Source of the DNA: Deltaproteobacteria bacterium
GTDB lineage: Bacteria; Desulfobacterota; Desulfobacteria; Desulfobacterales; ETH-SRB1
Reading direction: 5' to 3'
Length of the DNA stretch: 54,907 nucleotides
NCBI GenBank assembly: GCA_030627405.1
Contig: DAOUSD010000001.1
Location: forward strand, 1-54,907
This document shows, piece by piece, positions 9,724-54,907 of this stretch. Positions within the stretch are counted from its first letter, which is position 1, and every line of letters begins with the position of its first letter. Position numbers and translations under genes: made by a program. The notes under the pieces are model-generated. The model worked only from the letters and a program-made list of their open reading frames with translations, was not told where the DNA came from and made no database searches.

Positions 9724-10409
9724 TATTGAAGTAGGATTTCCAATTTTAATTTATAAGCCGTATAAAATACACTGATTGATTCAATTGTCACATTATTGTT
9801 GTCCATTAATATTCCAGAATAGGCATTATCGAAATTCCGTAATTGTCTGTAAAAATCTCCCGAAGTATTATAATAAACTGTTGTATTCGCATGGTATCTA
9901 CTTAATCCATGATTTACTTGCAAATCTCCCCCCGAAGCACTCAATACCCACCCCGTTGGATAGTCTGTACCCTCAACTGCTGCTGCCACACTCCCCGCTA
10001 AAGTGCCGTTAATGGGTAGTGTAATTTCGTAAACAGTTTGCGCCCCAGTCGCAGATAGCATACTGTCAACCGTCCTCTGCGTATAGAATATGTCTAAAGA
10101 GTCGGAATATTGAACATCTCTCCCATCTGTCAAAGTAGAATCTATTCTTGCCCCTGCATACCACCATACCAAATAACCGTTACTTGGTTGATATATTATC
10201 GAATCCCATCCATTCCCCGATCCTGCTGTGTTTAGAACAAATTGCCGTGTTGCTGCAATAGTGTCATTGCCATCAATTTGAGTAGTTCCCCTCAGTGAAT
10301 CACCAGTAATTATCAACTCGTAAGAAGCCTCAACTCTTTCTCCTTTTATTTGTGCATTGCCAGCTAATACTATAAGTGCAAGTGCTAATATTAAAATTAT
10401 TTTTTTCAT
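9723..10409 (-). CDS. Exported or tail-associated protein, function unknown
   Basis: 228 aa. The N-terminus is MKKIILILALALIVLAGNAQ. Its stop overlaps the fibre start codon. Confidence 0.6.
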   Translation of the reverse strand: MKKIILILALALIVLAGNAQIKGERVEASYELIITGDSLRGTTQIDGNDTIAATRQFVLNTAGSGNGWDSIIYQPSNGYLVWWYAGARIDSTLTDGRDVQYSDSLDIFYTQRTVDSMLSATGAQTVYEITLPINGTLAGSVAAAVEGTDYPTGWVLSASGGDLQVNHGLSRYHANTTVYYNTSGDFYRQLRNFDNAYSGILMDNNNVTIESISVFYTAYKLKLEILLQ

Positions 10410-20211: not shown

Positions 20212-20819
20212 ATTCCAAATGCGTTAATCTTCCATAGAGGGGCGAAAACCCAATCTTCATAATCAGTTAAATTCGCCAATAGGAAATTAAATAAACTTGG
20301 TTCTGCGTTAATATGGGAGTAATTGCCATTATCAAGGAAAAAATCAGGATATCTTTTATAGTATCTGTTTTGTTTCCCATGAATATTTGCCAAATCATTC
20401 CATACACTAACCATTTTTACTATTGCCGAATGAGCGACTGAATTTTCACCCTTTCCTTTTCTCTCTCCTAAACCTGAATTGAAACTTTCAACATTCACTC
20501 TATTCTTATAGTATATATAATTTGCTATCGGTGAAATCTTTTCATCATTCACTAATCCTTCCCATTTAGTATTTATAGTTCTACCATTGTACTCAAATGA
20601 GAATTCTGCACCGTTAATCAACTCATTATAATTAGTGTACACACTAGCGTCTATTTCTGCCTGAACAGCTTTCCATAGCGTGTATCCAAGTAATAATTTT
20701 AGATATTCCGGTTCATACCTTACTATTGCAGCGATTAATGGTGCTTTTAGTTCAGCTGTTGAACCAAATGGCACATTAATGTCGCGAACAAAATAACTTG
20801 TATCAATCAGGTTTGCCAT
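20208..20819 (-). CDS. Head-tail connector or neck protein candidate
   Basis: 203 aa, synteny only. Confidence 0.4.
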   Translation of the reverse strand: MANLIDTSYFVRDINVPFGSTAELKAPLIAAIVRYEPEYLKLLLGYTLWKAVQAEIDASVYTNYNELINGAEFSFEYNGRTINTKWEGLVNDEKISPIANYIYYKNRVNVESFNSGLGERKGKGENSVAHSAIVKMVSVWNDLANIHGKQNRYYKRYPDFFLDNGNYSHINAEPSLFNFLLANLTDYEDWVFAPLWKINAFGI

Positions 20820-25519: not shown

Positions 25520-27289
25520 TTATTTCAAATACTGTTTAAGCAATCTTTTAACCACATAAGCCATACTAGGCAGAATATTAGCAGCAGCCGACTCATTAGC
25601 CTCTGAAGTGGTTGTGTAGGCATTTAATTGCTGCATATAAGTTTTATAATAAGTTCCATCCGAATCTTTCTCGAATATGAAAGTATCTTTAATAAACCCG
25701 GATTCACTCAAAATGTAATTGTCTTCTTTCCTGAATTCTTTTATGTGACGAATCGGTATTTTCATCGGCTTTAATCCAATATGGAAAGAAACAAATGAAG
25801 GATCACATTCAATAAATATTTTCTTGGCACCAATGAACTTATTTTTTAATTGATCAATATTATCAGAAGGAAGCATGGAATTAAAAATACAATCGGTGAT
25901 GAATATTTTCTGATTCTTAATCTTAGCATACAAGGCAAGAAAATTGTAATCGGTATTTTTGCTATTCGTACTGGTTATTTTGATGTAAATAAAGTCGTAA
26001 CTGTCCGTGAAATCGTAATCTTTCCAGTATTTTAAGTTATCTCTGTTGAATATCTCGCTGTCTGAATAAACTCCTATTGGGAATAGGTGGGTGAAGCCGT
26101 AAACTATGGCATCTAATCGGTTTGGTGATTTTTCTCCTGGCTTTCCAGTATATAGTGCCATTTCTGTTTCTGCATCGGGAAATCCACCAACATGACTTAT
26201 TTTACCATTGTCGTATAAAGCCGAAATCGGTTCCGCTCTCAAGAGCTTACCTTTAGTGGCATGAATACCTTTTACTGGAATATTTTCATTAACAATCTGT
26301 ATAGTGTGCCGAATTAGGTCTCCGCCAGCATTCGTTTCAGCTACAACCCATGTTGCTCTATATTTCAAATAAAGATCGCACACTATTTTAGACCATTCTT
26401 TTGGCGAGTACGTTCCTGATTTATCTTCAAGCAAATAGCCTCTGCCGTCAAATCCTTTGGCGCAAACGGCAATCCCTGTCTCATCTGAAGTTATTTTAGC
26501 TGTCGTCGCAGGATCAACAGCAATCACTATTTCTTTTAGTTCTGGCCTATTAACTAACCTATATTTATTAAAATTAGCTTCTGAGAATAAAGACCCTTCT
26601 TCTACATCTGCAAAATCGCCTTTATAGAAACGTTTCCTTTCTTCTGCCGGAAGCTCAGATAGCATTTCAATGTATTCTTTGTCGATATTAGCCTCATTGT
26701 CGATAGGATTCATCTTCATGTAGCAATACTGCTCAGGATGCTTAATAAGTGTCTTATCTCTTGGGTCAATCTGCTCGACGAATAATTTGTAGCACCAGTG
26801 AAGTTTTGAGGGTGGATTGAGGTCAAGGAATATGCGATTTGTCAATCCAGATTTTTGAGCAAGACGAGTTTTTAGTATTGTGTAGGTAGTGTATGTGAGC
26901 TGCGAAACTTCATTCATCCATATCGTACTCAGTTCTATACCAAGTACTTTGTCTAATCCGCGAGCATCATCAGCACCTACAAAATGTATTTCGGAGCCAT
27001 TCGAGAAACGAGCAAACCAATCTTGTAAGTTTAATTTATATTCAACATTCATTAATTGGCAAACGTCCTTGAAGGTTTCATTTACAATTGACCTTTTTAT
27101 GTCTGAGAAATGTAGCCTAACGATTAAATGCCTGGACTTCTTTTTTAAAGCTCTGAACACAATAAAGAACATTATTATGAATGATTTTCCACTACGGCTT
27201 CCGCCATAAAGCATTGTGTATCTGTGAGTTAGCATTAAATTTAATGCAACTTCCTGCGTAGGATTATTCTTAAAACTAATTTCTCCCAT
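25520..27289 (-). CDS. terL: Terminase large subunit
   Basis: Walker A motif LYGGSRSGKSF is present, and the size is about 590 aa. The start was moved to the ATG at 27289 (MGEISFKNN) because the track start is an upstream alternative codon. Confidence 0.9.
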   Translation of the reverse strand: MGEISFKNNPTQEVALNLMLTHRYTMLYGGSRSGKSFIIMFFIVFRALKKKSRHLIVRLHFSDIKRSIVNETFKDVCQLMNVEYKLNLQDWFARFSNGSEIHFVGADDARGLDKVLGIELSTIWMNEVSQLTYTTYTILKTRLAQKSGLTNRIFLDLNPPSKLHWCYKLFVEQIDPRDKTLIKHPEQYCYMKMNPIDNEANIDKEYIEMLSELPAEERKRFYKGDFADVEEGSLFSEANFNKYRLVNRPELKEIVIAVDPATTAKITSDETGIAVCAKGFDGRGYLLEDKSGTYSPKEWSKIVCDLYLKYRATWVVAETNAGGDLIRHTIQIVNENIPVKGIHATKGKLLRAEPISALYDNGKISHVGGFPDAETEMALYTGKPGEKSPNRLDAIVYGFTHLFPIGVYSDSEIFNRDNLKYWKDYDFTDSYDFIYIKITSTNSKNTDYNFLALYAKIKNQKIFITDCIFNSMLPSDNIDQLKNKFIGAKKIFIECDPSFVSFHIGLKPMKIPIRHIKEFRKEDNYILSESGFIKDTFIFEKDSDGTYYKTYMQQLNAYTTTSEANESAAANILPSMAYVVKRLLKQYLK

Positions 27290-27994
27290 TGTAGTCTGAT
27301 TTATATTCCCAAATATTACCACCAACTGTTTTATACTTTCCTTTACAGCATTTGGCTATGCCGCTTGCGTCTAATCCCGTCTGTCTATGGGCATCCATTA
27401 TTCCTTCGTATTCAGATACTAAAGTTCCATTTATTGTTAATTTCACTATGGGCATACTAAGGTGATGATCTTTTCCAAATTTACCAGTGCATGAGCCAAT
27501 TCTTAAACCTGTATCGAATGCGTGCTTGTTGTTTTCTGAATGAGTAGCTTTCTCTAAATTAAGATAAAAGTTATTGGTTTTTATACTATCAATATGATTC
27601 GTTGTTTTTTTGTTTTCTGGATTATCGAGGAATGATCCTGCCACTATAATGAATGCACGTTTGATTTATTATCAGCCCCATTAACATTAATTCCAACTAT
27701 CATATAGTTATCGTTAAAATTAGTAACTCTAAGTATTCTACCTTTCATGGCATGCCATACCTTGCCATTCCATGCATCCCTACCAAGGCTCTTAACGCGA
27801 CCAAAATTAGATACACAATAAAATCCTTCAAACTCCTTCACATCCCTCCATTCTTCCTCAATTCCAAACCAAACTTTAGCTGCTCTAATTAAAACAGGTA
27901 AAAACTCATTTTGATTTCTTCCGGTATCAAACATTTTACGGAACCATCCTGAATAGATCTTAGCAATTTCTTCTTCTTTAAACTTTGATTTCAT
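27276..27994 (-). pseudogene. NUMOD4/HNH_3 homing endonuclease split by a frameshift
   Basis: The upstream ORF has EEWRDVKEFEGFYCVSNFGRVKS and ends ...NVHSL-stop. The next frame continues VAGSFLDNPENKKTTNHIDSIKTNNFYLNLEKATHSEN. Removing 2 nt at about 27645 restores VHSLVAGSF. Confidence 0.7.
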
Positions 27995-31382: not shown

Positions 31383-31706
31383 TTACCTGTTTAATATTGA
31401 ATGAATGTGCTTAAGCTCGTTAATCGATGTGTTTCTGATCCTATCGGCGTTTAATATTACAACTCTGTTCTTATCTTTCGCGTTGCTGTTATACTCTGGC
31501 TTGTGTTTAAATATTAGTTCTTTCTCTTTGTTCTTTGCTTCGCGTTGTCCTGGCATTGAAAACATTTGAATATCACTGAACTTTCTATTTCTCCATGGAT
31601 GATCCTTTAATCGTTTGTAGATATTCTTTGAACATCCGATATAAACTATCTTGCCATCATCAATAAGGGAGTAAACAAAGTAAATGCCTTTCAATTCAAT
31701 ATACAT
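31383..31706 (-). CDS. GIY-YIG nuclease (free-standing homing-endonuclease-like)
   Basis: GIYFVYSL...KIVYIGCSKNIYKRLKDH and a later E (REAKNKEKELI) fit the GIY-YIG core. Non-coding DNA flanks the gene on both sides. Confidence 0.75.
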   Translation of the reverse strand: MYIELKGIYFVYSLIDDGKIVYIGCSKNIYKRLKDHPWRNRKFSDIQMFSMPGQREAKNKEKELIFKHKPEYNSNAKDKNRVVILNADRIRNTSINELKHIHSILNR

Positions 31707-33125: not shown

Positions 33126-33346
33126 AAAAGAATTCATTCCTATAAATGCAATAAACTGTTTAAATTGATTGTTATCAACTTGTACGCAACTACGATTCTA
33201 TCTATCTTGTTTTATAGCACAGCGTTTACGCATCGCATAAATAATTCAATGGTATTACTGGCACGCTGATATGGAAAATAAGACAATTGAATTTATAAGG
33301 TTTCAAGACCTTGACAGTCACAAATTAAACTTTTAAAATTATCATC

Positions 33347-33646: not shown

Positions 33647-33662
33647 TAACGGTTCAATTCCG
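33647..33662 (+). repeat. Early-arm intergenic motif copy (divergent 3' half)
   Basis: taacggttcaattccg. Confidence 0.4.
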
Positions 33663-39314: not shown

Positions 39315-39613
39315 TGAAAAATTACAGCCTAAATAATCTCATTGCAAAACTCACATCCGAAATCGATTCAATGGAGATGAAAGGATTTGACGTGTGTTGT
39401 GATAAAGATTGGAACGGAGAAGGAGAATTTGAAATCGAATTTGAAGATTGCATTGTGGTTATTGGATGTAATATTTTTAAATCATTTGACAGGGACATGG
39501 AATTGACTGGATTTGAAGTTAAGGTCAGTAGTGTTTATTTGCAATATCCTGATAATAAAAAAATGATTCCGGTTAAAGATGTAAAAACAATTGAAAATTC
39601 ATTAAAACCATGA
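39314..39613 (+). CDS. Hypothetical protein
   Basis: 99-aa ORF with overlapping start and stop codons against both neighbours. Confidence 0.55.
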   Translation: MKNYSLNNLIAKLTSEIDSMEMKGFDVCCDKDWNGEGEFEIEFEDCIVVIGCNIFKSFDRDMELTGFEVKVSSVYLQYPDNKKMIPVKDVKTIENSLKP

Positions 39614-40605
39614 GCGAACTATATTCACATCCATTACCTTATATTTCAATTCCAGATGAAATTCCGAATGATGAATACCATAATGGAGAGAAATACAAGG
39701 ACTTTATAAGCTCAACGAGGCTTAAATGGTATTTAACTTCTCCTAAGTGGTACAAATTCATTTGCGACAACCCACAAGAGTCTAAAATTAGCTTAAAGGC
39801 ATCAATGGAAGGCTCTGTCTATCATGACATGTTGGCTTCATTGGTAAATAATGGTAATTTAAATGGCTTTGAAAGAGATTGGTTTGTCTTTGATCCTCCA
39901 ATAAACGAGAAGACAGGAAGCCCATATGGGATTACATCCAATAAATACATGGGTGCATACGAAGATGCTAAATATGCAAATCCCGGCAAAGAAACAACTT
40001 CTCATGCAGAAGTAGTCAAAGCAAAGGCAATGATTGATGAACTGCTTTACCACAATTACCATTATTCATACACCATTAGGAAATTTATCGAATGGGGCAA
40101 GGCTGAACAATCATGCTTCTGCGAGTATAAGGGACACAAGTTTAAATACAGGAAAGATTTAGCCACCAAAACAAAAATGATTGATTGGAAATCTACTGAA
40201 GAAAAGGACCTACATGAAGATACAATTGCCAAAATAATTGTTAAATTTAAGTATGATTTATCAGCAGCTTTTTATCAATTTTTCGAGCATCAAATAACGG
40301 GAGTTTGGAAACCTTTCTTTTGGGTGTTCCAACAAAAAAACCCTCCTTATGATGCAGTTTTGGTATCAGCAGATAAATGGGCTTATGAAATTACAGATAA
40401 TACACCAGGAGATCAAATTGTATTGGCAAGGGATGGAGCATTGAGATTTAAGCAACTTCTTAATCAGCATATTTGGTGCGAAGAAAACGATGTATATCCC
40501 GGAGCTTCAGTTTTTATTGAACCTGACTTTAAACAACACAGGGTTATGTATCCTGAAGTCCCGGGATGGAAGAAAAATGAAACTACAAATTTTTATAACG
40601 ACTGA
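39610..40605 (+). CDS. PD-(D/E)XK family exonuclease (RecE/YqaJ-like)
   Basis: 331 aa. It contains GSVYHD, KMIDWKST (a D-x-K motif) and YDLSAAFYQ segments, and sits two genes upstream of a RecT-like gene. Confidence 0.6.
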   Translation: MSELYSHPLPYISIPDEIPNDEYHNGEKYKDFISSTRLKWYLTSPKWYKFICDNPQESKISLKASMEGSVYHDMLASLVNNGNLNGFERDWFVFDPPINEKTGSPYGITSNKYMGAYEDAKYANPGKETTSHAEVVKAKAMIDELLYHNYHYSYTIRKFIEWGKAEQSCFCEYKGHKFKYRKDLATKTKMIDWKSTEEKDLHEDTIAKIIVKFKYDLSAAFYQFFEHQITGVWKPFFWVFQQKNPPYDAVLVSADKWAYEITDNTPGDQIVLARDGALRFKQLLNQHIWCEENDVYPGASVFIEPDFKQHRVMYPEVPGWKKNETTNFYND

Positions 40606-40606
40606 A

Positions 40607-40855
40607 ATGGAATCAAACAGAGAATTAGCCGAAAGATTAGTTAAAGATTGCCTTGAGAACAACGTAGTTAAAAGAACTAAATCAGAAATGGAAAATCATT
40701 TAGAAGATAGTATTACGTGGGCGATGAACGATGCTTTTAGGATAATAAAAAACATTGAAAAAACCTCTTTAGACAATATGGATAGAGCAACCAGATTTAT
40801 AAGGCTTGAAGAAAAATATGGAATACCAAAAACTCATTTAATATTAAAACAATGA
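40607..40855 (+). CDS. Hypothetical protein
   Basis: The start was taken at ATG 40607 (MESNRELAERL), just after the exonuclease stop. Confidence 0.5.
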   Translation: MESNRELAERLVKDCLENNVVKRTKSEMENHLEDSITWAMNDAFRIIKNIEKTSLDNMDRATRFIRLEEKYGIPKTHLILKQ

Positions 40856-41976
40856 TCAAAAAAGAACAATTATTAGAAGACTTAAAATTCAAATTCAATG
40901 GTGATGGATTCGAATGTGTCGGATGCCCAAAAGCATTAAAATTCACATTCGATGAGTTAAAAAACATGACAGATGATATGTTTGTCAAAACCATGCAAGA
41001 GCATGAAAAACACCATGTAATTGGATTTGGAGAGGCTTACATGAAATTACATTCGCCAGAAGTAAAATCTGTTGCGAATAAAACAGTAGTCAAAAAGAAT
41101 ATCCCTACTCCTGCCGCAAATAAAGTGGCAGCAAAAATCACTGAGCCTAAAGTTCCTGCAAAGGTAGCACCGCCGAAAGCTGCTTTACCTCAAAAGTTAA
41201 TTGATGCCGGATTGCAAAGAGTTTTACTTCAGCCAAAACAGGCGTTTATAGCAGCCGGAGGAACAGAGCAGCAATTTGCAAAAGAAATTAATTTTGCTGT
41301 TCAGCATCTAATGAAAAATGATTTCATACTTGGATGTGCTCAACGAAATCCCGAATATTTAGTTGAAGCCGTAAAGAACATAGCATTAACCGGACTTACG
41401 TTAAACCCGGAATTAAAACTTGGATATTTAGTTCCTAGGAGTGGCAAAATTTATTTCTCGTCTTCTTATATGGGAAAAAGAGAAATTGTAAATCGAACTG
41501 GGCATGTAAGAGATTCATTTGCTTCTTTAGTTTATGAAAAAGATGTTTTTGAAATTCAAAAGGGAACTAATCCGAGTATAAAGCACATCCCTAATCCTTG
41601 GGGAGAGAAAGGCGAATTAATGGGTGGATATTGGGTATGTGAGCTTTCTAATGGTTCAAAGTCTTTCGACACCATGACCAAAGAAAGGATCGATGAAATA
41701 AAGGCAAAATCAGAATCGGTAAAAGCAGGAGGTCAGTCTCCGTGGAAAACAGATTTTGAAGAAATGGCTCTTAAAACAGTTTACAATTGGGGCTTTAAGT
41801 TCATGCCCAAAACTGGATTATCACCAGATCAAGTAACTGCGTTAACCATTGAATCAAAATATGATAATGAAGTTTTTGAAGAATGGATAAAGGAACAAGA
41901 TAAAAAAGCTGAAATGTTTGACGATGATGGCCCGGCAGGTGAAAACCAAATAATAGATATTAAAGCCGAGGACTAA
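40852..41976 (+). CDS. recT: RecT-family single-strand annealing protein
   Basis: The central region NFAVQHLMKN...ALTGLTLNPELKLGYLVPRSGKIYFSSSYMGKREIV resembles RecT. It is paired with the exonuclease gene. Confidence 0.7.
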   Translation: MIKKEQLLEDLKFKFNGDGFECVGCPKALKFTFDELKNMTDDMFVKTMQEHEKHHVIGFGEAYMKLHSPEVKSVANKTVVKKNIPTPAANKVAAKITEPKVPAKVAPPKAALPQKLIDAGLQRVLLQPKQAFIAAGGTEQQFAKEINFAVQHLMKNDFILGCAQRNPEYLVEAVKNIALTGLTLNPELKLGYLVPRSGKIYFSSSYMGKREIVNRTGHVRDSFASLVYEKDVFEIQKGTNPSIKHIPNPWGEKGELMGGYWVCELSNGSKSFDTMTKERIDEIKAKSESVKAGGQSPWKTDFEEMALKTVYNWGFKFMPKTGLSPDQVTALTIESKYDNEVFEEWIKEQDKKAEMFDDDGPAGENQIIDIKAED

Positions 41977-44598: not shown

Positions 44599-44630
44599 GT
44601 GCTTTACTTGTTTTTCTTATTAATGTTTGT

Positions 44631-44638
44631 TACATTTG
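44631..44638 (+). promoter_or_regulatory. Candidate -7 promoter box
   Basis: TACATTTG is an exact TAnnTTTG match. 24 nt separate it from the ATG at 44663, and it follows the terminator candidate. Confidence 0.45.
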
Positions 44639-48287: not shown

Positions 48288-48539
48288 ATGGAACGATTTT
48301 ATAAACAGGTGGAAGATTTAGAAAAAGAAAAAGCACAAGAATTGTATAAAGAGATTTGTGCTGAGATTATTGAAAAAAATGGATTAAAAAATACAGCAAT
48401 AGAAATGCTGACTAATTTTTGTGATGCTCGTATAAGAGAGCAAATTGAATTAGATAGAAATAGAGATTATTTAACAAAAGTTGCTCCAATTTGGAAAGGA
48501 ATAAAAAGGGCTGTTACAATTATTGGTAATGGAGTCTAA
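48288..48539 (+). CDS. Hypothetical protein
   Basis: 83-aa ORF. Confidence 0.55.
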   Translation: MERFYKQVEDLEKEKAQELYKEICAEIIEKNGLKNTAIEMLTNFCDARIREQIELDRNRDYLTKVAPIWKGIKRAVTIIGNGV

Positions 48540-48552
48540 TGGTAAATTGTAA
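48537..48552 (+). repeat. Early-arm intergenic motif copy (variant)
   Basis: taatggtaaattgtaa. Its TAA is the stop of 48288..48539. The 14-mer ggtaaattgtaagt recurs at 50703..50716. Confidence 0.55.
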
Positions 48553-48610
48553 GTTGACATTTTCCGTTGAAATACCGATAGAATTAGTAAATAACATAAA
48601 TTTTAAAATT

Positions 48611-48979
48611 ATGATAGCAAAGGCATTGAAGAACTTTGGTGGACACATGGTATTTTTAGTAGGATTAAGTAGTGGAGTTAGTACATGGGTTTATTACGAT
48701 GAATATTGGTTAGGTATAACACTTATTGTGCTTGGCTACTTTCTTAGCTGTGTTGTACGTGCGATGGCAGCCAGTTATCAGACACCTACAGGCAAATGCA
48801 ATAAACATATTGTTAGCGGTTCGGTGCTTTCTGACAAAGAGCTGGAAGAACATATTTGGGAAGAGATAGAACTTCCACTATCAAATACTGATAAAATACT
48901 AAATACAGATAGCTATAAAAAATACTTGGATGTTGTTGAATGGGCGAAGTTCGGGCGCGATTATCGCACTGACCGCTAA
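48611..48979 (+). CDS. Membrane protein (2 TM)
   Basis: The start was taken at MIAKALKNFGG, after a tttaaaattatg context. The TM segments are HMVFLVGLSSGVSTWVYY and LGITLIVLGYFLSCVV. Confidence 0.5.
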   Translation: MIAKALKNFGGHMVFLVGLSSGVSTWVYYDEYWLGITLIVLGYFLSCVVRAMAASYQTPTGKCNKHIVSGSVLSDKELEEHIWEEIELPLSNTDKILNTDSYKKYLDVVEWAKFGRDYRTDR

Positions 48980-48992
48980 TGGTTTGGCTAAG
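48977..48992 (+). repeat. Early-arm intergenic motif copy
   Basis: taatggtttggctaag. Its TAA is the stop of the upstream ORF. Confidence 0.6.
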
Positions 48993-49051
48993 TACTTACC
49001 GCTGATGAATAACCGAAGCATTATAAACGAGATATAATTAAACACTTTAGT

Positions 49052-49288
49052 ATGGATAACAACGAAATTTTAAAACAACTTGAAGACTTATTGATAATTA
49101 CTTGTGAATCAGAAAAAAGAGAGATTAGTAAATACCTAAAGTTGTTAAGCGAAGGCAAACAGAAACCAACGAACGATAGCAGTAGTTGTACTATCTGCAA
49201 CAAAGAAACTGCTTCCGTTTGCGAAAAGTGTTTAGCTACACATTATAGTACAACTACCGCTAACGTTAAATGTATGCGCTGTATGTAG
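49052..49288 (+). CDS. Small Cys-rich protein
   Basis: 78 aa with the pattern CTICN...CEKC...CMRC. Confidence 0.5.
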   Translation: MDNNEILKQLEDLLIITCESEKREISKYLKLLSEGKQKPTNDSSSCTICNKETASVCEKCLATHYSTTTANVKCMRCM

Positions 49289-49360
49289 CGCAGCGAAATA
49301 TGGCGTATGACATAGTGTTATATGCTTTTATTAATAATTTTTTAAATAAATAATACAGAT

Positions 49361-49639
49361 ATGGAACAATTAAATTTAACACCAAAGGAACTAAAAAAAA
49401 TAGGATTTACCCAATTAAAAATAGAGGGTAACGAAATGAATAAGCCAAAAACAATTTATAAGATTGACTTTATAAATGGATATATTTATTGTAATCCAAA
49501 TGAAAAGATATACAAGTGGTATCACAAAACAATATTAGGAGATGCGGCTAATTATATTCATTTAGATATAACTAATAGACCTATATTATATACGCTACTA
49601 AGTTGTTTAAATATAGATTATGAGCTAGTGATGGTTTAA
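49361..49639 (+). CDS. Hypothetical protein
   Basis: 92-aa ORF. Confidence 0.5.
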   Translation: MEQLNLTPKELKKIGFTQLKIEGNEMNKPKTIYKIDFINGYIYCNPNEKIYKWYHKTILGDAANYIHLDITNRPILYTLLSCLNIDYELVMV

Positions 49640-49646
49640 TTGCATA

Positions 49647-49662
49647 TAATGGTTTGTGTATG
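49647..49662 (+). repeat. Early-arm intergenic motif copy
   Basis: taatggtttgtgtatg. Confidence 0.6.
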
Positions 49663-49675
49663 AAATTTAAAATTT

Positions 49676-49876
49676 ATGGATATGAAAAATGAAGACATTA
49701 AGGTGGCATGTGAACATCTATTCACAGTTATTAAAATGAGTGAAGATAAATTAAGTGAAATCAGAAAGATATGTAAACATGAAAAAACGTATGAAGGTAA
49801 TTACTCGTGGCGACCGGGGGCAATACAACTTGCAGACATTTGTGAGTATTGTGGTGAATTGGTACAGTATAAGTAA
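49676..49876 (+). CDS. Small Cys-containing protein
   Basis: 66 aa with the pattern C..H...C.H...CEYCG. Confidence 0.5.
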   Translation: MDMKNEDIKVACEHLFTVIKMSEDKLSEIRKICKHEKTYEGNYSWRPGAIQLADICEYCGELVQYK

Positions 49877-49917
49877 TAAATTTTATTTTTTATACACCTT
49901 GTTATAAATTGAAAATT

Positions 49918-50010
49918 ATGAGGAAAATACTTAATAGAATATTGGACGTTATAGCAATAATTTCACTCGCATATATAATACTGTATGCCGTGATAATTTT
50001 TTGTTTATAA
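49918..50010 (+). CDS. Tiny TM peptide, 30 aa (MRKILNRILDVIAIISLAYIILYAVIIFCL)
   Basis: Hand-translated. Its stop TAA is the first triplet of the next motif copy. Confidence 0.3.
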   Translation: MRKILNRILDVIAIISLAYIILYAVIIFCL

Positions 50011-50023
50011 CGGTTTGTGTTTG
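50008..50023 (+). repeat. Early-arm intergenic motif copy
   Basis: taacggtttgtgtttg, preceded by ttttttgttta. Confidence 0.6.
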
Positions 50024-50055
50024 TTTTGGAATTTTACGAATTTAAAACTACGAAT

Positions 50056-50388
50056 ATGATTAACGAAAATGTAACAAAAGTACTAGACCAGTTGAAATAC
50101 ATAGCTGAATTTGAAGAAAGCAAAAACGGAAATAAAGGGCATGTAATATGGAGCTATAACTTTTACAAGCTATCACAAGCTATAGTAAAATTATTAAATA
50201 AACATATTATTATGCCTTCGTTTGCGGAATTAAAGGAAATGAGGTTAAAAACTAGATACAGTATGCGACAAATAAGTAAAAAAACAGGAGTAAGTACCCC
50301 AACGATAAGCCGTATAGAAAAAGGGAATAATGCTGAATACCAGAACGTTAAAAAATTATACGAGTTTTATGTAGCAAATGAGGCATAA
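50056..50388 (+). CDS. XRE-family HTH transcriptional regulator
   Basis: The start was taken at MINENV. The C-terminal half is LKEMRLKTRYSMRQISKKTGVSTPTISRIEKGNN. Confidence 0.65.
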   Translation: MINENVTKVLDQLKYIAEFEESKNGNKGHVIWSYNFYKLSQAIVKLLNKHIIMPSFAELKEMRLKTRYSMRQISKKTGVSTPTISRIEKGNNAEYQNVKKLYEFYVANEA

Positions 50389-50401
50389 TGGTTGGCTAAG
50401 T
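50386..50401 (+). repeat. Early-arm intergenic motif copy (1-nt shorter)
   Basis: taatggttggctaagt. Its TAA is the stop of the HTH gene. Confidence 0.55.
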
Positions 50402-50431
50402 TTTGAAGTTTTAACGTAAAAAAAATAGATA

Positions 50432-50695
50432 ATGACAACAGAAGATTATTTTAACCAAGACGATTTACTTGCTACAAGTAAAGTACCAAAAGAGATACGA
50501 AGATTTACATACTTCGATTTATTAAAGTTCGCTGAATATTACCACAGAAGTGAGTTAAAGCTTTTAAATTTAGACTTTGCTAGCAAGCGAAGCGAACTGT
50601 TAATTGGCTTTATGGAAGATTTACGAAAAAACGGAGAACTACCAGAGTTGCTGAGCATTGAAAAAAGAGCTGCGAATTATTCAGCCAATTTATAG
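50432..50695 (+). CDS. Hypothetical protein
   Basis: 87-aa ORF. Confidence 0.55.
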   Translation: MTTEDYFNQDDLLATSKVPKEIRRFTYFDLLKFAEYYHRSELKLLNLDFASKRSELLIGFMEDLRKNGELPELLSIEKRAANYSANL

Positions 50696-50781
50696 TTGCT
50701 GACGGTAAATTGTAAGTGCTGACCGCTGTTAGATTACCGAAAGAATTTGAAACGAGAATAAAAATTATAAATTACCGAGCG

Positions 50782-51162
50782 ATGGACATGAAAAAATTAG
50801 AATACACAGAAACACAACACACTGGAAACCACGGAGATTTCCAAAACGTAATTATACAAGTAAAATTCATGGGAATTAACTTTTACCAACCAGCCAAAAT
50901 GAAAAGTATATTTAACTACAGCTACAGGTTGGCAAAATGGAGAATATTAAGGAATATTAAGCAAGTAATTAAGGGAGACATATTTGAACAGTGGGATGGC
51001 AAAGGGTATTCTACGGGCGCAAGCGGTTTGGATTTACACTTTGTTACCCAGCGAAGCGAACAGTTAAGCGATTTTGAGAAATGGCTTAACGACAAAGAGT
51101 ACGATTCAATGTGGACTAAACATTTAATTAGCGAATATAAAAAATTGCTTAATTGTGGGTAA
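50782..51162 (+). CDS. Hypothetical protein
   Basis: The start was taken at MDMKKLEY because the track GTG start lies inside a motif variant. Confidence 0.5.
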   Translation: MDMKKLEYTETQHTGNHGDFQNVIIQVKFMGINFYQPAKMKSIFNYSYRLAKWRILRNIKQVIKGDIFEQWDGKGYSTGASGLDLHFVTQRSEQLSDFEKWLNDKEYDSMWTKHLISEYKKLLNCG

Positions 51163-51175
51163 CGTTCCGGCTAAG
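51160..51175 (+). repeat. Early-arm intergenic motif copy
   Basis: taacgttccggctaag followed by aatagtgggcc. Its TAA is the stop codon. Confidence 0.55.
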
Positions 51176-51296
51176 AATAGTGGGCCGCGTAGATACCAAT
51201 AATGATAAAAATAGTTATATAAATTACTAATAAACAAGGACTTAAATGTGGGCCACGCCCATTATTTTTAGACTTTGTTACAAACTTTTAAAAATT

Positions 51297-51512
51297 ATGG
51301 ATTACAAGACATTGACACAACAATCAGACCATAATGCAGCTATTGAAAGAGAAGAATATAACTTATTTGCTACGATAAAGCCAAAACTTTACAAAGATGG
51401 CAACCAGTGGTGTTGCTTATATGGTGAAGATTTGCAGGTTGGAATTGCTGGTTTTGGCGATACACCATGGTTCGCAATAATGGATTGGAACAAAGGATGG
51501 CGTAAGCTATAA
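51297..51512 (+). CDS. Hypothetical protein
   Basis: The start was taken at MDYKTLTQQ, after a cttttaaaaattatg context. Confidence 0.5.
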   Translation: MDYKTLTQQSDHNAAIEREEYNLFATIKPKLYKDGNQWCCLYGEDLQVGIAGFGDTPWFAIMDWNKGWRKL

Positions 51513-51525
51513 TTTTATTTGTTTA

Positions 51526-51541
51526 TAATGGTTTGGTTAAG
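51526..51541 (+). repeat. Early-arm intergenic motif copy
   Basis: taatggtttggttaag, preceded by ttttatttgttta. Confidence 0.6.
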
Positions 51542-51628
51542 TTTTGAAGCCTAACCACAAACGATTAAATTTAGTATAAACTTTACATAGGCTTTTAAAT
51601 ATAGCTTTTGTTATAAACTTTTAAAATT

Positions 51629-51778
51629 ATGGATTTATTAAATGATGATACATCAATGACAGTAAGATGTGAAAACTGCGGATGGGAAGGTTACGATGAT
51701 GAATTAATTAAAAACGATGAATTTAGTAATGAAACTTATATGTATTGCCCGACTTGTTTAAGCGATAGAATTGAATAA
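51629..51778 (+). CDS. Small zinc-ribbon protein, 49 aa
   Basis: Hand-translated. The sequence MDLLNDDTSMTVRCENCGWEGYDDE...YCPTCLSDRIE follows a cttttaaaattatg context. Confidence 0.45.
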   Translation: MDLLNDDTSMTVRCENCGWEGYDDELIKNDEFSNETYMYCPTCLSDRIE

Positions 51779-51793
51779 TTTTTATTGTTTATA

Positions 51794-51809
51794 TAACGGC
51801 TCGTGCAAG
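51794..51809 (+). repeat. Early-arm intergenic motif copy
   Basis: taacggctcgtgcaag followed by aatagtggcg and attaacgcacgaa, and preceded by tttttattgttta. Confidence 0.6.
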
Positions 51810-51899
51810 AATAGTGGCGATTAACGCACGAAATTAGATTGAAAGAATACAGTAAAAAAGAAAAAAAGGGAGGGTTTTCTTCTCTTAAAAACTAAGAAT

Positions 51900-52763
51900 A
51901 TGAAAAACAAATTTAAAAACAATTGCTGTGATGGAATATATAACAGCTTTGATGTACACTTTACAAGTGCCTGTGATAATAAATGCGCACATTGTATTGA
52001 TATGAAATACTCTGGTTTTGATATTAAGAAACCTGATATTAACGCAATTGCAAAAACTATAATCGACAAGCAAGAAGGTTATAATGATGTTTTATTTTTA
52101 GGTGGAGAACCTTGTTTATATTTACAAGAGTTGATTGACTGCATTAAGCTTGTGAAAGCAAAAACTAAGCTTAAAATATTTGTAACTACTGCCGTGCCAA
52201 AAATATGCCACGATAGAATTGATTTATTCACAGAGCTTATTGCTTTGGTTGATGGAATGAATTTAAGCGTACAAAGCCACAATGAAGCTGTTGCAGATGA
52301 AATAAGGAAGGTTAAAAGTAAATATGACAGGCAATCTTTTTACAACAACCTACCAAGTAAAGAGAAGATTAGAATTAACCTTAATATTGTAAAGCCCTAT
52401 TTATACAAAAAAGAGGATATTGAAGAGTGTTTACTGCATTACGATAAGATGGGATTTAACTCTATTAAAATAAGTGAAATACAACACGGAAAAGATTATT
52501 TTGTTTCTTTTGAAGAAACATTTAATTTAAAGCTTGGTACACCTTATTTTAATGGATGCCAAAAATATTTAAAAATGAATGATTTGATACCAAACTTTAA
52601 AACTCCAGTACTACTAAAGAGAAGTTGCTTTATTTGCGAAAAAACGCTAAAAGCCTCTTTTATGGATGGTGTAAAAGTTTGCTCAAAATTATTTACAATA
52701 GCTAAGAAAAGCAACTATGGAGTTGTTTATGAAAACGGATGTTTAACTAAAGGATGGAGGTAA
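51900..52763 (+). CDS. Radical SAM enzyme, subfamily unassigned
   Basis: The Cx3Cx2C cluster motif is FTSACDNKCAHC (residues 25-32), followed by the LFLGGEP SAM-binding motif. 287 aa with 6 further Cys in the last 80 aa and no canonical SPASM pattern seen. Confidence 0.85.
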   Translation: MKNKFKNNCCDGIYNSFDVHFTSACDNKCAHCIDMKYSGFDIKKPDINAIAKTIIDKQEGYNDVLFLGGEPCLYLQELIDCIKLVKAKTKLKIFVTTAVPKICHDRIDLFTELIALVDGMNLSVQSHNEAVADEIRKVKSKYDRQSFYNNLPSKEKIRINLNIVKPYLYKKEDIEECLLHYDKMGFNSIKISEIQHGKDYFVSFEETFNLKLGTPYFNGCQKYLKMNDLIPNFKTPVLLKRSCFICEKTLKASFMDGVKVCSKLFTIAKKSNYGVVYENGCLTKGWR

Positions 52764-52768
52764 AAATT

Positions 52769-52855
52769 ATGTACACAAGAATTTTAAGAAAAGTTGCAAA
52801 CGCCATTGAAGCAATGGCAGGACACTGCGGAGGCAGTACGGGACATTGTTCCTAA
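52769..52855 (+). CDS. 28-aa peptide MYTRILRKVANAIEAMAGHCGGSTGHCS, candidate radical-SAM substrate or RiPP precursor
   Basis: Hand-translated. The ATG lies 5 nt after the rSAM stop, and GGAGG lies 8 nt upstream. The peptide has a helical basic N-terminal half and a G/H/C/S-rich C-terminal half with two GHC units. A hairpin terminator follows directly. Confidence 0.45.
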   Translation: MYTRILRKVANAIEAMAGHCGGSTGHCS

Positions 52856-52860
52856 CCAAA

Positions 52861-52900
52861 TTGGCTTGCAAAGCCAAAAGAGCGGTGGCTTTTTCTTTTT
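52861..52900 (+). terminator. Terminator candidate after the rSAM-peptide pair
   Basis: Hairpin TTGGCTT-gca-AAGCCAA lies at 52861..52877. An alternative stem pairs AGCCA with TGGCT (52886..90) and is followed by ttttcttttt. Confidence 0.5.
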
Positions 52901-53031
52901 GGTAAATTAGCACGAAACTCGATTGAAACACAGCGCATTACCTATATATGGTGTTGTGCGCTGTGCTTTCTCTTCTAAAAAGTGATAAGATTCAAAATTA
53001 AAACCTATTCGCTTTTTAGGGGCATTGCGCA

Positions 53032-53047
53032 CAACGGTTTGTGTATG
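53032..53047 (+). repeat. Early-arm intergenic motif copy
   Basis: caacggtttgtgtatg followed by catagtgcgc and gaattacgcacag. Confidence 0.6.
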
Positions 53048-53134
53048 CATAGTGCGCTTTTGAATTACGCACAGAAGTAAAAACGAAGATAACCAGCTCC
53101 GCATACGGTGTGCGAGGGCATAAAATTAAATAAG

Positions 53135-53380
53135 ATGATAAACAATGACTTATTAAAGGAGTTCAACGCCTTACAAAACGATGTTGAAAAGTGGAAATGG
53201 GTTAAAGAACATCAGCACACTGGCATAGTTATTATGCTGGATAATGATGATACGTTTGGTCAACTTCCCGACCAAGAAGACCCTGATGATATTCTGATAT
53301 TCCAATTCGATGATTATATTGGATACGGAGGTGTTGAAGAGTTGTTAAAAGCTTACGGCATTAAATCAGAGGGTGTGTAG
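53135..53380 (+). CDS. Small acidic protein
   Basis: The start was taken at MINNDLLKEF. A D/E-rich segment is DNDDTFGQLPDQEDPDDILIFQFDD. Confidence 0.5.
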   Translation: MINNDLLKEFNALQNDVEKWKWVKEHQHTGIVIMLDNDDTFGQLPDQEDPDDILIFQFDDYIGYGGVEELLKAYGIKSEGV

Positions 53381-53448
53381 GCAAAAGCCAAATACGAGAG
53401 CCAGCGCATTATGTATGACACTTTGTTATAGGCTTTTAAAATTACGGG

Positions 53449-53754
53449 ATGAAAAAAGAAAAATATTACTTTAAACGTAGTGACTCTGAGATTTGCAGAA
53501 CAGTAGCTTATTTTGATAGCTATATGCAGCAAAACAATTTAACAGAGATTGAAGTATTTGAAGCTGAGCCTGAAATTATAGGCGGTGGTATATTTTGGTG
53601 TAAGGAGCATTTGTTTTGCGGTGATGGAACGACAGACACCTGTGGTAAAAAGAATTGTAAAGACTACGAGCCACGAAACAAAATAAGCGGTGTATGTAAA
53701 CACCACACCCATAGACTATATACACACGGCAATAAAGTTACATTACGATTGTAG
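53449..53754 (+). CDS. Cys/His-rich protein
   Basis: 101 aa with the pattern CKEHLFCGDG..DTCGKKNC...CKHHTH. Confidence 0.55.
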   Translation: MKKEKYYFKRSDSEICRTVAYFDSYMQQNNLTEIEVFEAEPEIIGGGIFWCKEHLFCGDGTTDTCGKKNCKDYEPRNKISGVCKHHTHRLYTHGNKVTLRL

Positions 53755-53770
53755 CAATTTTTATTGTCTA

Positions 53771-53786
53771 TAACGTTGAATGTATG
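53771..53786 (+). repeat. Early-arm intergenic motif copy
   Basis: taacgttgaatgtatg, preceded by tttttattgtcta. Confidence 0.55.
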
Positions 53787-53900
53787 TGTAGTACAGCCTT
53801 GCACATATTTTCAACCTTAAATTAAACTTAATTGGCTGTATTACATATACATATTGTTAGCGTTTCGTTTTTGAGCGTTGGCATTTTAAAACTTAAAGCT

Positions 53901-54080
53901 ATGGCAGAATATTGCGAAGATTGCGGATGTAAAGTGTACGGTAATGGATGCACTAATTGTAATGAAGAGTTATATATACTCGACCAATACGATGAACTTG
54001 AAATGGAAAGACCAAGTGAGGACACGGATTTTATGAAGAAAGCACGTGAACAGCAAGAGTGTTTGGCAAATGAACGCTAA
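53901..54080 (+). CDS. Small zinc-ribbon protein
   Basis: The start was taken at MAEYCEDCGCKVYGNGCTNCN. Confidence 0.5.
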   Translation: MAEYCEDCGCKVYGNGCTNCNEELYILDQYDELEMERPSEDTDFMKKAREQQECLANER

Positions 54081-54093
54081 CGTTGCAGCGTAT
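54078..54093 (+). repeat. Early-arm intergenic motif copy
   Basis: taacgttgcagcgtat. Its TAA is the stop codon, and it is followed by aatttaaccacgaa. Confidence 0.55.
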
Positions 54094-54244
54094 GTTGCGT
54101 TGCCAATTTAACCACGAAATTTTGATACGAGAACGTCTGTAATAATTATTTTTAGGGAGGTTCTTTTTTGTTTTAATAAATAGTTGGTAATTAGTAAATA
54201 ATTACTATATTTGTAGGGTAATTATAAATTTAAACACTGAAACG

Positions 54245-54784: not shown

Positions 54785-54907
54785 ATGCAATATTACGCAT
54801 TGTTAGCAAACGAAAGTGAACTGTTATTTGCTTTTTTTATGTGGTTTCGAGAGAATGGGGAAAAATACATGAATGAAAGTATTGAGAAAATGATTCAGAC
54901 ATACTTG
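54785..54907 (+). CDS. 5' part of a 45-aa ORF that crosses the end junction (MQYYALLANESELLFAFFMWFRENGEKYMNESIEKMIQTYLKSKL)
   Basis: The frame is open from ATG 54785 to the window end. In the joined genome it stops at the TAG corresponding to 116..118. Confidence 0.3.
   Translation, partial: MQYYALLANESELLFAFFMWFRENGEKYMNESIEKMIQTYL
54805..54907. repeat. Direct terminal repeat, copy 2 (identical to 1..103)
   Basis: Exact 103-nt identity with the window start. Confidence 0.95.

Follow-up and report, generated by a model that had tools for sequence, protein, structure and literature searches.

Introduction

Among the elements described so far that punctuate small genes in phage genomes, the promoter-early stem-loops (PeSLs) of T4-type phages, which Arbiol and colleagues reportedly described in 2010 as “mobile regulatory cassettes”, are repeated stem-loop elements of ∼50–60 nt that flank small open reading frames (ORFs) in a plastic region of the genome and for which gene shuffling has been proposed. 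Both PeSLs and the “boundary sequences” of lambdoid phages have been proposed to act as linkers for homologous recombination. The stoperators of cluster A mycobacteriophages, said to have been described by Brown and colleagues in 1997, are short, asymmetric, multicopy motifs that lie in a single orientation to transcription, in short intergenic gaps and often over stop codons. Here we examine a motif that shares features with both, called M1, which occurs between the small genes of a 54,907-nt contig (GenBank assembly GCA_030627405.1, contig DAOUSD010000001.1; the whole contig is referred to as the window). The window is a tailed-phage genome, present as a circular assembly of ∼54.8 kb with ∼35% GC. 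An original prediction, made from the sequence alone, had listed 16 copies of the motif and offered early promoters or operators, RNA processing or termination signals, and recombination cassettes as possible roles. We find that M1 is one half of a longer, imperfectly palindromic element with a second, conserved arm, and that this element probably functions as a folded recombination site similar to the attC sites of integrons, in which case the small-gene region of the phage would be an array of swappable gene cassettes.

Described cassette arrays offer a second set of comparisons. The attC sites considered here include the 59-base elements (for example, the Vibrio cholerae repeats) and the integrase-less attC clusters (CALINs); such clusters are reported to occur in virulent phages, a Polaribacter phage among them (Qi et al., 2023; PMC9892861). 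The rAID-1 arrays (short for recombinase-associated acquired interbacterial defence) of Bacteroidales contain conserved intergenic repeats that were “reminiscent of integrons” to the authors, who left the sites undissected and mentioned no link to phages (Ross et al., 2019, bioRxiv 10.1101/471110; 2025 follow-up, 10.1101/2025.05.03.651265). The Polaribacter phage P12002L, the reported attC carrier, has no copy of M1, so the present family is not the one described there (PMC9892861). Literature searches, run on the motif string and on attC-like sites of phages, turned up no account of this family.

The M1 motif and its copies

M1 is a degenerate 16-mer with two exact matches in the window and 11 matches at two or fewer mismatches, where 0.59 would be expected, and nine of these 11 lie on the + strand within the predicted cluster. 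Both the enrichment and the strand bias are real. Membership was scored with a 42-nt position weight matrix (PWM) trained on 220 sites from other contigs and none from the window, which avoids circularity. Eleven + strand copies, beginning at 123, 889, 1248, 48977, 49647, 50008, 51160, 51526, 51794, 53032 and 53771, score between 13 and 34.5 bits. Three further copies on the original list are degenerate and were retained on their context: those at 434 (8.9 bits) and 54078 (<8 bits) were accepted through their 5′ flanks, which pair perfectly or near-perfectly with a partner box upstream of the same gene, and the copy at 50386, a weak member below the PWM threshold, is a 1-nt-deletion variant of the type seen at 48977. 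The last two, at 33647 and 48537, were rejected, as they score below the threshold and have no flanking features, and a “degenerate copy” that had been placed at 33170–33250 contains no M1. The copy at 33647 was also considered as part of a tRNA gene and resembles a T-arm only; no tRNA or tmRNA genes were found in the window. The copy at 48537 is one of two occurrences of another small repeat, GGTAAATTGTAAGT, which lies at 48541–48556 and 50704–50719, at gene junctions where a stop codon and the next start codon are close together.

Several other properties attributed to the motif hold up. All accepted copies are on the + strand, and the − strand yields one match at 20401–20416, whose 15.2 bits are at chance level (simulated random sequence with the first-order Markov composition of the window reaches 16.3 bits), and a weaker one of 8.5 bits at ∼9943–9958. 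The cluster does cross the ends of the contig, which carries an exact 103-nt terminal direct repeat (1–103 = 54805–54907) and is thus circular or terminally redundant, making features near both ends contiguous. The TAA at the start of the motif also terminates the ORFs that end at 891, 48979, 50010, 50388, 51162 and 54080; a seventh case had been counted at the rejected copy 48537. We also agree that M1 is a nucleic-acid signal rather than a leader peptide.

A second arm and the anatomy of the site

The original prediction had missed another box, M2 (TAYACNTTGTTA), which lies on the same strand as M1, either 40–130 nt after an M1 or 15–45 nt before the next start codon. The two boxes are imperfect inverted repeats of each other and form the left and right arms of an imperfect palindrome of 50–130 nt. 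Searches for M2 were anchored on M1, as a looser automatic detection of M2 gave no signal. Single-sequence folds around the 16-mer are inconsistent, and the structure becomes clear only when M2 is included. The element at 119–252 folds end to end at −13.6 kcal/mol on the + strand and −7.9 kcal/mol on the − strand, the element at 53767–53864 forms an end-to-end hairpin with a DNA fold z-score of −3.5, and the region at 1248 has an RNA fold z-score of −4.6.

The site begins with a variable outer box, R″, that ends in (T/C)AAC and is followed by a short unpaired spacer, GGTTT. Next come the inner box L″ (GTGTATG), a variable middle of 0–100 nt and the inner box L′ (TATACAC), and the site closes with a spacer, NTT, and the outer box R′, which starts with GTT(A/G). 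In the outer stem, the frame (A/T)AAT(T/G)-N5-(T/C)AAC is paired with GTT(A/G)-N5-N-GTT. Its five central positions vary freely and are nearly always complementary, while position 11 has a conserved T·G pair. Positions 4–9 pair in at least 40 of 42 bacterial and at least 19 of 23 viral cognate pairs; the AAC and GTT triplets are fixed by the site-detection procedure and are not independent evidence. The sequences that had been noticed around M1 find their place in this scheme. The preceding TTTTATTGTTTA represents the outer arm, which is variable, the ATAGTRGCG box lies in the inner stem, where it pairs with sequence just 5′ of M2, and the TTAA(C)GCAC box belongs to the subfamily-specific middle.

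Sequences that mimic M2 also occur within genes. Genes 50432–50695 and 50716–51162 contain paralogous versions of a short segment (..RSE(L/Q)L..), located at 50571–50603 and 51035–51067, whose DNA (TAGACTTTGCTAG and TACACTTTGTTAC) resembles M2 and is a source of false M2 matches inside coding sequence.

Covariation between the arms

The paired arms covary. In a consensus hairpin built from 15 short-type elements, 94.7% of cells are paired, and double compensatory changes are seen at 7 of the 19 pairs. Its covariation score of 0.320 exceeds the 0.158 of shuffled alignments (0 of 500 shuffles scored as high) and drops to 0.092 or less when the partners are slid against each other.

The inner and outer parts of the stem covary with different partners. 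At the inner L box, the dinucleotide of M2 agrees with the M1 of its own element in 26 of 29 informative cases and with the M1 across the gene in none of the 29. At the outer positions of the bacterial arrays, the R′ after an M2 is perfectly complementary (6/6) to the R″ before the next M1 in 27 of 35 cases, while R′ and R″ of the same element match at a mean of 2.2 of 6 positions. An M1-anchored search gave the same picture, with the reverse complement of R″ located directly after an M2-like box in 31 of 90 intervals in viral contigs (4 of 446 controls) and in 44 of 95 intervals in bacterial contigs (3 of 472 controls). For the nine cassettes of the window, cognate arms match at 5.56 of 7 positions and non-cognate arms at 2.51 of 7 (permutation p < 1e-5), although the cognate value is slightly flattered, as the arm pairing itself helped to recognise two of the nine M2 variants.

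An inner part that is self-consistent, combined with a right outer box tied to the downstream gene, is the classical signature of site-specific cassette insertion. The same covariation argument placed the integron crossover at G|TT in the 1990s. For the present sites, the pattern of pairing leads us to infer a crossover that falls after L′ and ahead of the variable part of R′.

Strand bias and the possibility of an RNA element

Transition mismatches within the stems leave G·T wobbles on one of the two strands, and these fall predominantly on the strand that carries M1. The counts for the M1 strand against the opposite strand are 50:6, 33:0 and 25:0 in the viral sets and 76:11, 19:3 and 38:4 in the bacterial sets, where base composition predicts ∼1:1; conserved inherited positions are included, so the events are not independent. 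The genes are arranged differently with respect to this strand in the two groups: they read in its sense in 36 out of 37 clear intervals from viruses, and lie antisense to it in 53 out of 62 from bacteria. That the wobbles stay on the same strand in phages and bacteria despite opposite gene polarity favours folded single-stranded DNA, rather than mRNA structure, as the molecule that folds.

The competing explanation that survives best is an element acting at the RNA level, although we consider it unlikely. Here, intercistronic hairpins of a long + strand transcript would serve as RNase III-like processing sites, 3′-end stabilisers or weak terminators or attenuators, and the likeness to host arrays would reflect common descent. 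In the phages, the folding strand is indeed the sense strand in all but one of the clear cases, the one-sided stem changes are compatible with G·U pairing, M1 begins at or a few bases past stop codons, and copies of M1 alone are frequent, all of which such an element could accommodate. It fares poorly with the bacterial arrays, whose wobbles are on the same strand and there antisense to the genes, and with the two-part covariation, as a local hairpin fails to explain the pairing of outer arms across a gene and a gene-spanning stem fails to explain the inner box that pairs within the element. The terminator role that had been suggested finds no match either, since the element lacks a U-tract and none of 12 terminator-like sites coincides with M1, and an Rfam search of the window and of five related loci was negative both at the gathering threshold and with E relaxed to ≤ 1. 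The phage elements could also have a function in RNA and still originate in recombination.

Distribution in phages and bacteria

Exact copies of the 16-mer occur in over 117 viral contigs from IMG/VR and in over 119 genome contigs (contigs and loci compared here are labelled with L-numbers). Judged by their record titles, the genome contigs are overwhelmingly from Bacteroidota and include Aquimarina, Polaribacter, Cellulophaga, Tenacibaculum, Maribacter, Winogradskyella, Saprospiraceae, Prolixibacteraceae and Bacteroidales, with most bacterial matches in Flavobacteriia and other non-Bacteroidales Bacteroidota. Two or more copies on one strand are present in 52 of 118 viral sequences (117 viral loci plus the window’s own region) and in 51 of 119 bacterial loci, and the densest loci have 12 copies in 12.9 kb (L030) and 10 copies in 8 kb (L205). 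Nucleotide homology between the window and other contigs, at 74–85% identity, stops at the ends of the elements, and the neighbouring genes are unrelated. Two apparent relationships were discarded: an indel between L014 and L017, considered as evidence for a cassette, separates contigs of unrelated phages, and LR756500, the sole BLAST match of one element against GenBank phages, is spurious.

In bacteria, the elements separate short immunity-type genes downstream of Xer-like tyrosine recombinases, in arrays that resemble rAID-1. In L205, for example, the short genes between them share one orientation, and SUKH-1 and Barstar immunity proteins are among the products. Xer-like tyrosine recombinases adjoin the arrays in L156, L162, L170, L190 and L246, and in the four loci that were checked for orientation (L156, L162, L170 and L246) they are co-oriented with the array genes. 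Of four recombinases scored, those of L156 and L170 pass the cutoff of NCBIfam NF040815. Against the integron-integrase model TIGR02249, three full-length recombinases score 180–204 bits and the truncated L162 copy 108 bits, below the cutoff of 265, and the match is split in two pieces, which indicates that the array recombinases lack the IntI-specific insertion.

Bacterial cassettes can also be packed very tightly. In arrays L205, L192, L184 and L204, from uncultured Flavobacteriaceae, the start codon lies at a nearly fixed distance of ∼9–12 nt from the GTT of the site, which leaves little more than the recombination box as the 5′ untranslated region.

Comparison with integrons and rAID-1 arrays

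The likeness to integron attC sites extends from the single site to the array. Each site is an imperfect palindrome of 50–130 nt with invariant AAC...GTT, pairs of R and L boxes, a short unpaired spacer and a variable middle, and one strand is favoured for folding. Within arrays, the sites are hybrids in which the right outer box belongs to the next cassette and complements the left box of that cassette, and the cassettes hold short co-oriented genes, with some ORF-less cassettes and with the stop codon often located in the left box. There are also differences. The neighbouring recombinase is Xer-like, without the IntI-specific insertion, and is co-oriented with the array rather than divergent from it. 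The outer box that is split off measures 10–13 bp with five free positions, rather than 6–7 bp, and sequence conservation of the L boxes and spacer is strong throughout a whole phylum. In integrons the recombinogenic strand is antisense to the cassette genes; here the wobble-favoured strand is antisense in bacterial arrays (53:9) and sense in phages (36:1).

The bacterial relatives of the site also fit the description of rAID-1 arrays, in which a Xer/XerD-like tyrosine recombinase is followed by co-oriented short genes, including SUKH and Barstar, that are split by conserved repeats. This likeness is drawn from the description, as the motif of B. fragilis NCTC 9343 has been published as a figure only. 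The array layout is seen in the window, from 48.9 kb to 1.35 kb, and in the bacterial arrays L184, L192, L204 and L205. The window departs from the rAID-1 pattern in three respects. It has no upstream co-oriented recombinase, as found in L156, L162, L170 and L246, its cargo consists of ORFans rather than the recognisable immunity genes seen in L205, and the polarity of its genes relative to the site is inverted. What is new is therefore an attC-like family of sites that is tied to Xer-like recombinases and found across the Bacteroidota, with inverted gene polarity in many phages.

A proposed mechanism and its weak points

We infer from the site anatomy and its covariation that these sites recombine or have recombined. 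In the mechanism we propose, the strand carrying M1 would fold into an imperfect hairpin, and a Xer-like tyrosine recombinase of the kind that adjoins the bacterial arrays would recombine two such folded sites. With exchange at the crossover placed above, every gene would take its own R′ along on its upstream side and its own R″ on its downstream side. For a phage without its own recombinase, a host enzyme would have to act in trans, or have done so in the past; alternatively, the phage RecT system may act on the shared sequence. A more far-reaching version of this proposal is that phages of Bacteroidota maintain a mobile cassette pool of their own on the sites of their hosts’ immunity arrays, with inverted polarity, and borrow the host Xer-like recombinase in trans during infection to shuffle small accessory genes. 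We put this version forward tentatively, as a possibility that is more doubtful than the attC-like nature of the site.

Several observations weigh against a cassette array in the phage. No recombinase of any kind, tyrosine, serine or other, was found in the window, and more distant homologues of the array recombinases outside Flavobacteriia, examined with a strict pattern, show no clear association with the motif. About half of the phage copies are M1 without a recognisable M2, and several genes can lie between an M1 and the next M2, so that the phage array is either eroded relative to the bacterial arrays or contains M1 copies with a role of their own. The arms do not match in some cassettes (L093 at 4223, and L329), and the strict sense orientation in phages is predicted by an RNA-level function as well. 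Finally, close relatives of the phage were sought with the AAA protein, by an exact look-up of the radical-SAM protein and with the XRE protein in metagenomes, and as none turned up, it was not possible to map a gain or loss event or a presence/absence polymorphism to a site boundary, or to show an excision product. A comparison of whole cassettes between contigs gave no informative shared case.

Other explanations for the repeated elements

Homologous recombination offers another route to gene exchange, in which the elements would be linkers that provide 16–40 nt of junction microhomology to the phage RecT and PD-(D/E)XK exonuclease between co-infecting phages. The window encodes RecT (40852–41976) and a PDDEXK-like nuclease (39610–40605) and lacks a site-specific recombinase, and between contigs the homology of the elements is limited to the junctions. 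However, linkers of this kind need no hairpin, which leaves the compensatory changes, the cassette-specific inverted arms and the strand-specific wobbles unexplained, and the same sites flank immunity genes beside tyrosine recombinases in bacteria. We regard this explanation as improbable. The comparison with PeSLs, made in the original prediction, likewise stands as an analogy: PeSLs include an early promoter, and homology is the presumed basis of their recombination, whereas M1 and M2 contain no promoter, the covariation indicates a fixed crossover in a folded site, and the element is common to bacterial recombinase-linked arrays. Among the roles first offered, recombination cassettes that shuffle small genes come closest to the evidence.

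A regulatory site in double-stranded DNA, either a promoter or an asymmetric, “stoperator”-like operator read by a phage or host protein, is very hard to reconcile with the data. Like L5-type stoperators, M1 is asymmetric, confined to one strand and intergenic, with frequent overlaps with stop codons, and the window encodes XRE and DnaA-C-like helix-turn-helix (HTH) proteins that could read it. The element, however, has neither the −33/−7 signal of Bacteroidota nor a sigma-70 signal. The Bacteroidota promoter consensus (TTG N17–22 TAnnTTTG) has only two intergenic + strand matches, at 44608–44638 and 54184–54213, both of them outside M1 and M2 and 20–30 nt upstream of a start codon, and sigma-70-like matches are at background (38, with 34.8 in shuffled sequence). 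M1 (TAAC GG TTTG) and M2 (TAYAC N TTG) were considered as promoters themselves, but their spacing does not fit TAnnTTTG. Stoperators are private to one phage cluster, in which the phage’s own repressor binds them as duplex DNA, whereas M1 is part of a covarying hairpin and is spread over bacterial arrays and chromosomes and hundreds of unrelated contigs without a common regulator; covariation in pairing and a G·T bias are also unexpected for a double-stranded site. A selfish miniature inverted-repeat element of the MITE or REP type, transposing into intergenic DNA, would account for the terminal inverted repeats (TAAC...GTTA), the length of 50–130 nt, the many copies and the subfamilies common to several genomes, and is equally implausible, given that no target-site duplications were seen, that orientation is uniform in every array and that the two flanks of one element are mutually unrelated, with a mean of 2.2–2.4 of 6 positions in agreement, each pairing instead with the far side of the neighbouring gene.

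The array in the window

Read as a cassette array, the region from ∼48.9 kb through the circular junction to ∼1.35 kb would contain at least 10 small cassettes, two of them ORF-less. All features of the array are on the + strand. The array opens with the M1 at 48977–48992, a GGCTAAG L-box variant (13.0 bits) that supplies the stop codon of ORF 48539–48979. An M2 variant with its R′ (..GACATAGT GTTATATGCT, 49305–49326) precedes gene 49361–49639, and this R′ pairs at 6 of 7 positions with the R″ TGCATATAAT before the next M1, an exact consensus copy at 49647–49662 (23.7 bits). After gene 49676–49876 come an M2 and R′ (TACACCTT GTTATAAATT, 49893–49910) and a 29-codon ORF (49921–50010), which ends in the TAA of the M1 at 50008–50023 (20.9 bits); the R″ before this M1 pairs with the R′ at 5 of 7 positions. 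The XRE gene follows and terminates in the TAA of the weak, M1-like copy at 50386–50400 (TAATGGTTGGCTAAG), which has the 1-nt deletion and is similar to the copy at 48977.

Two genes further on, the M1 at 51160–51175 (24.2 bits) forms the left end of an element, 51160–51286, that is closed by an M2 and R′ (TAGACTTT GTTACAAACT) at 51269–51286. A gene separates this element from the GGTTAAG variant of M1 at 51526–51541 (19.4 bits) and the M2 variant and R′ (TATAGCTTTT GTTATAAAC) at 51599–51618. Across the following gene, this R′ matches, with a 2-nt insertion, the R″ GTTTATATAAC before the M1 at 51794–51809 (15.4 bits), and downstream of that M1 are ATAGTGGCG and TTAACGCAC boxes and a module consisting of a radical-SAM enzyme and a peptide. 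The module is followed by an M2 variant and R′ at 52941–52962 (TATATGGT GTTGTGCGCT), which opens the ORF-less cassette 52953–53035; its R′ pairs at 6 of 7 positions (9 of 10 over the whole box) with GCGCACAAC before the M1 at 53032–53047 (CAACGGTTTGTGTATG, 31.7 bits).

After one more gene, the M2 and R′ at 53417–53434 (GACACTTT GTTATAGGCT) introduce cassette gene 53449–53754. Among other phages, this gene has a homologue in L327 with compensating R′ and R″ arms (GTTATCTTT and AAAGATAAC), a homologue in L329 that precedes an element of a different subfamily, and homologues in L325 and L328 without any elements. The M1 behind it (TAACGTTGAATGTATG, 53771–53786, 16.4 bits) is the left end of a complete element, 53771–53865, with homologous elements in L084, L095, L062, L063 and L030. 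The element ends in an M2 and R′ at 53848–53865 (TACATATT GTTAGCGTTT), which matches the R″ GAACGCTAAC at 6 of 7 positions across the next gene. The degenerate M1 at 54078–54093 (TAACGTTGCAGCGTAT), accepted by this R″/R′ pairing, supplies the stop codon of the ORF ending at 54080. Two genes and an M2 and R′ at 54794–54811 (TACGCATT GTTAGCAAAC) then lead to a cassette whose gene runs over the circular junction to the M1 at 123–138.

That M1 (TAACGGTTATTGTATG, 30.6 bits) begins the complete element 123–253, which is homologous to elements in L093 and L010 with different flanking genes. The R′ behind its M2 (TACAAATT GTTAGGGTGC, 236–253) pairs at 7 of 7 positions with the R″ GCACCCTAAC (428–437) across ORF 263–421, at the degenerate M1 of 434–449 (TAACGTTGCGTGCAAG). 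ORF 508–891 ends in the TAA of the M1 at 889–904 (13.7 bits), which has no M2 before the next gene. The M2 and R′ at 1140–1157 (TGTACTTT GTTATTAATT), where the inverted repeat extends to GTTATTAATTGGCGTGGCG and CGCCACGCTTATTTATAAC, open the second ORF-less cassette (1148–1251), and the array ends with the exact consensus M1 at 1248–1263 (34.5 bits), within a region (1248–1355) that is 82% identical to an element in a contig of Maribellus (Bacteroidota; L224). One gene follows, and a canonical terminator 3′ of 1592 closes the + strand unit. The cassette genes are ORFans, none of which matches a PHROG, and Pfam assigns only the XRE and radical-SAM proteins.

Other features of the phage genome

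The genome is organised in two blocks. Lysis, tail, capsid, portal and terminase genes are on the − strand between 1.7 and 32.7 kb, and replication and recombination genes, together with the small genes, are on the + strand from 33.3 kb via the junction to 1.6 kb. The + strand products include RecT, the PDDEXK nuclease, the DnaA-C-like HTH protein, KilA-N, XRE and the radical-SAM enzyme. At the DNA level, the sole match to known phages is the RecT gene of Bacteroides/Phocaeicola phages.

The radical-SAM gene (51900–52763) is followed by a 28-codon ORF (52769–52855; MYTRILRKVANAIEAMAGHCGGSTGHCS), and the module sits inside an element, with a direct repeat of ∼25 nt, TTA(AC)GCACGAAA.T.GATTGAAA, on both sides. 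The same pair of enzyme and peptide occurs in seven otherwise unrelated viral contigs of 4–286 kb (L237–L243). The peptides share an M(Y/F)T..LRK start and at least one GHC motif, usually two, and usually end in GHC(Y/S/N/D). To judge by its sequence, the pair looks like a phage-borne maturase of a ribosomally synthesised and post-translationally modified peptide (RiPP) with its precursor. Homologues of the radical-SAM protein were found in unrelated phages without the elements.

Homing-endonuclease-like ORFs lie at 27276–27994 and 31383–31706. Two adjoining fragments of this kind (HNH_3/NUMOD-like, then NUMOD4) are found immediately upstream of the ORF for the terminase large subunit (25520–27325), whose 5′ end they overlap, and a GIY-YIG ORF is present separately from the HNH_3/NUMOD-like fragments. 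The tail-fibre-like ORF 4465–9723 (− strand, 1752 codons) contains about five tandem units of ∼50 nt at ∼5.9–6.2 kb, which read ..CCGTTGGCTGTATTATAG..GCCAGTGGTATTG.AGTAGAGAGATTG..

Implications for phages and their hosts

Hypervariable regions of small ORFans are a hallmark of phage genomes, and their turnover is largely unexplained. Were the sites described here active, accessory genes would be swapped among a large group of phages of Bacteroidota, from the sea and possibly also the gut, by a defined and testable site-specific reaction, and this reaction would be common to the phages and to the interbacterial-defence arrays of their hosts. For rAID-type arrays, active sites would provide a mechanism, naming the paired bases and the expected crossover. 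M1 and M2 would also provide a sequence handle for cassette boundaries in metagenomes. Should the sites in the phage be relics or RNA elements, the cassette arrays of phage and host would still be linked by descent. If the broader proposal is true, phage genome plasticity would have a site-specific, integron-like engine, and the cassettes would be a “currency” that passes between host defence islands and viruses; with active sites, integron-like systems would reach beyond IntI, to a Xer-like enzyme and to viruses.

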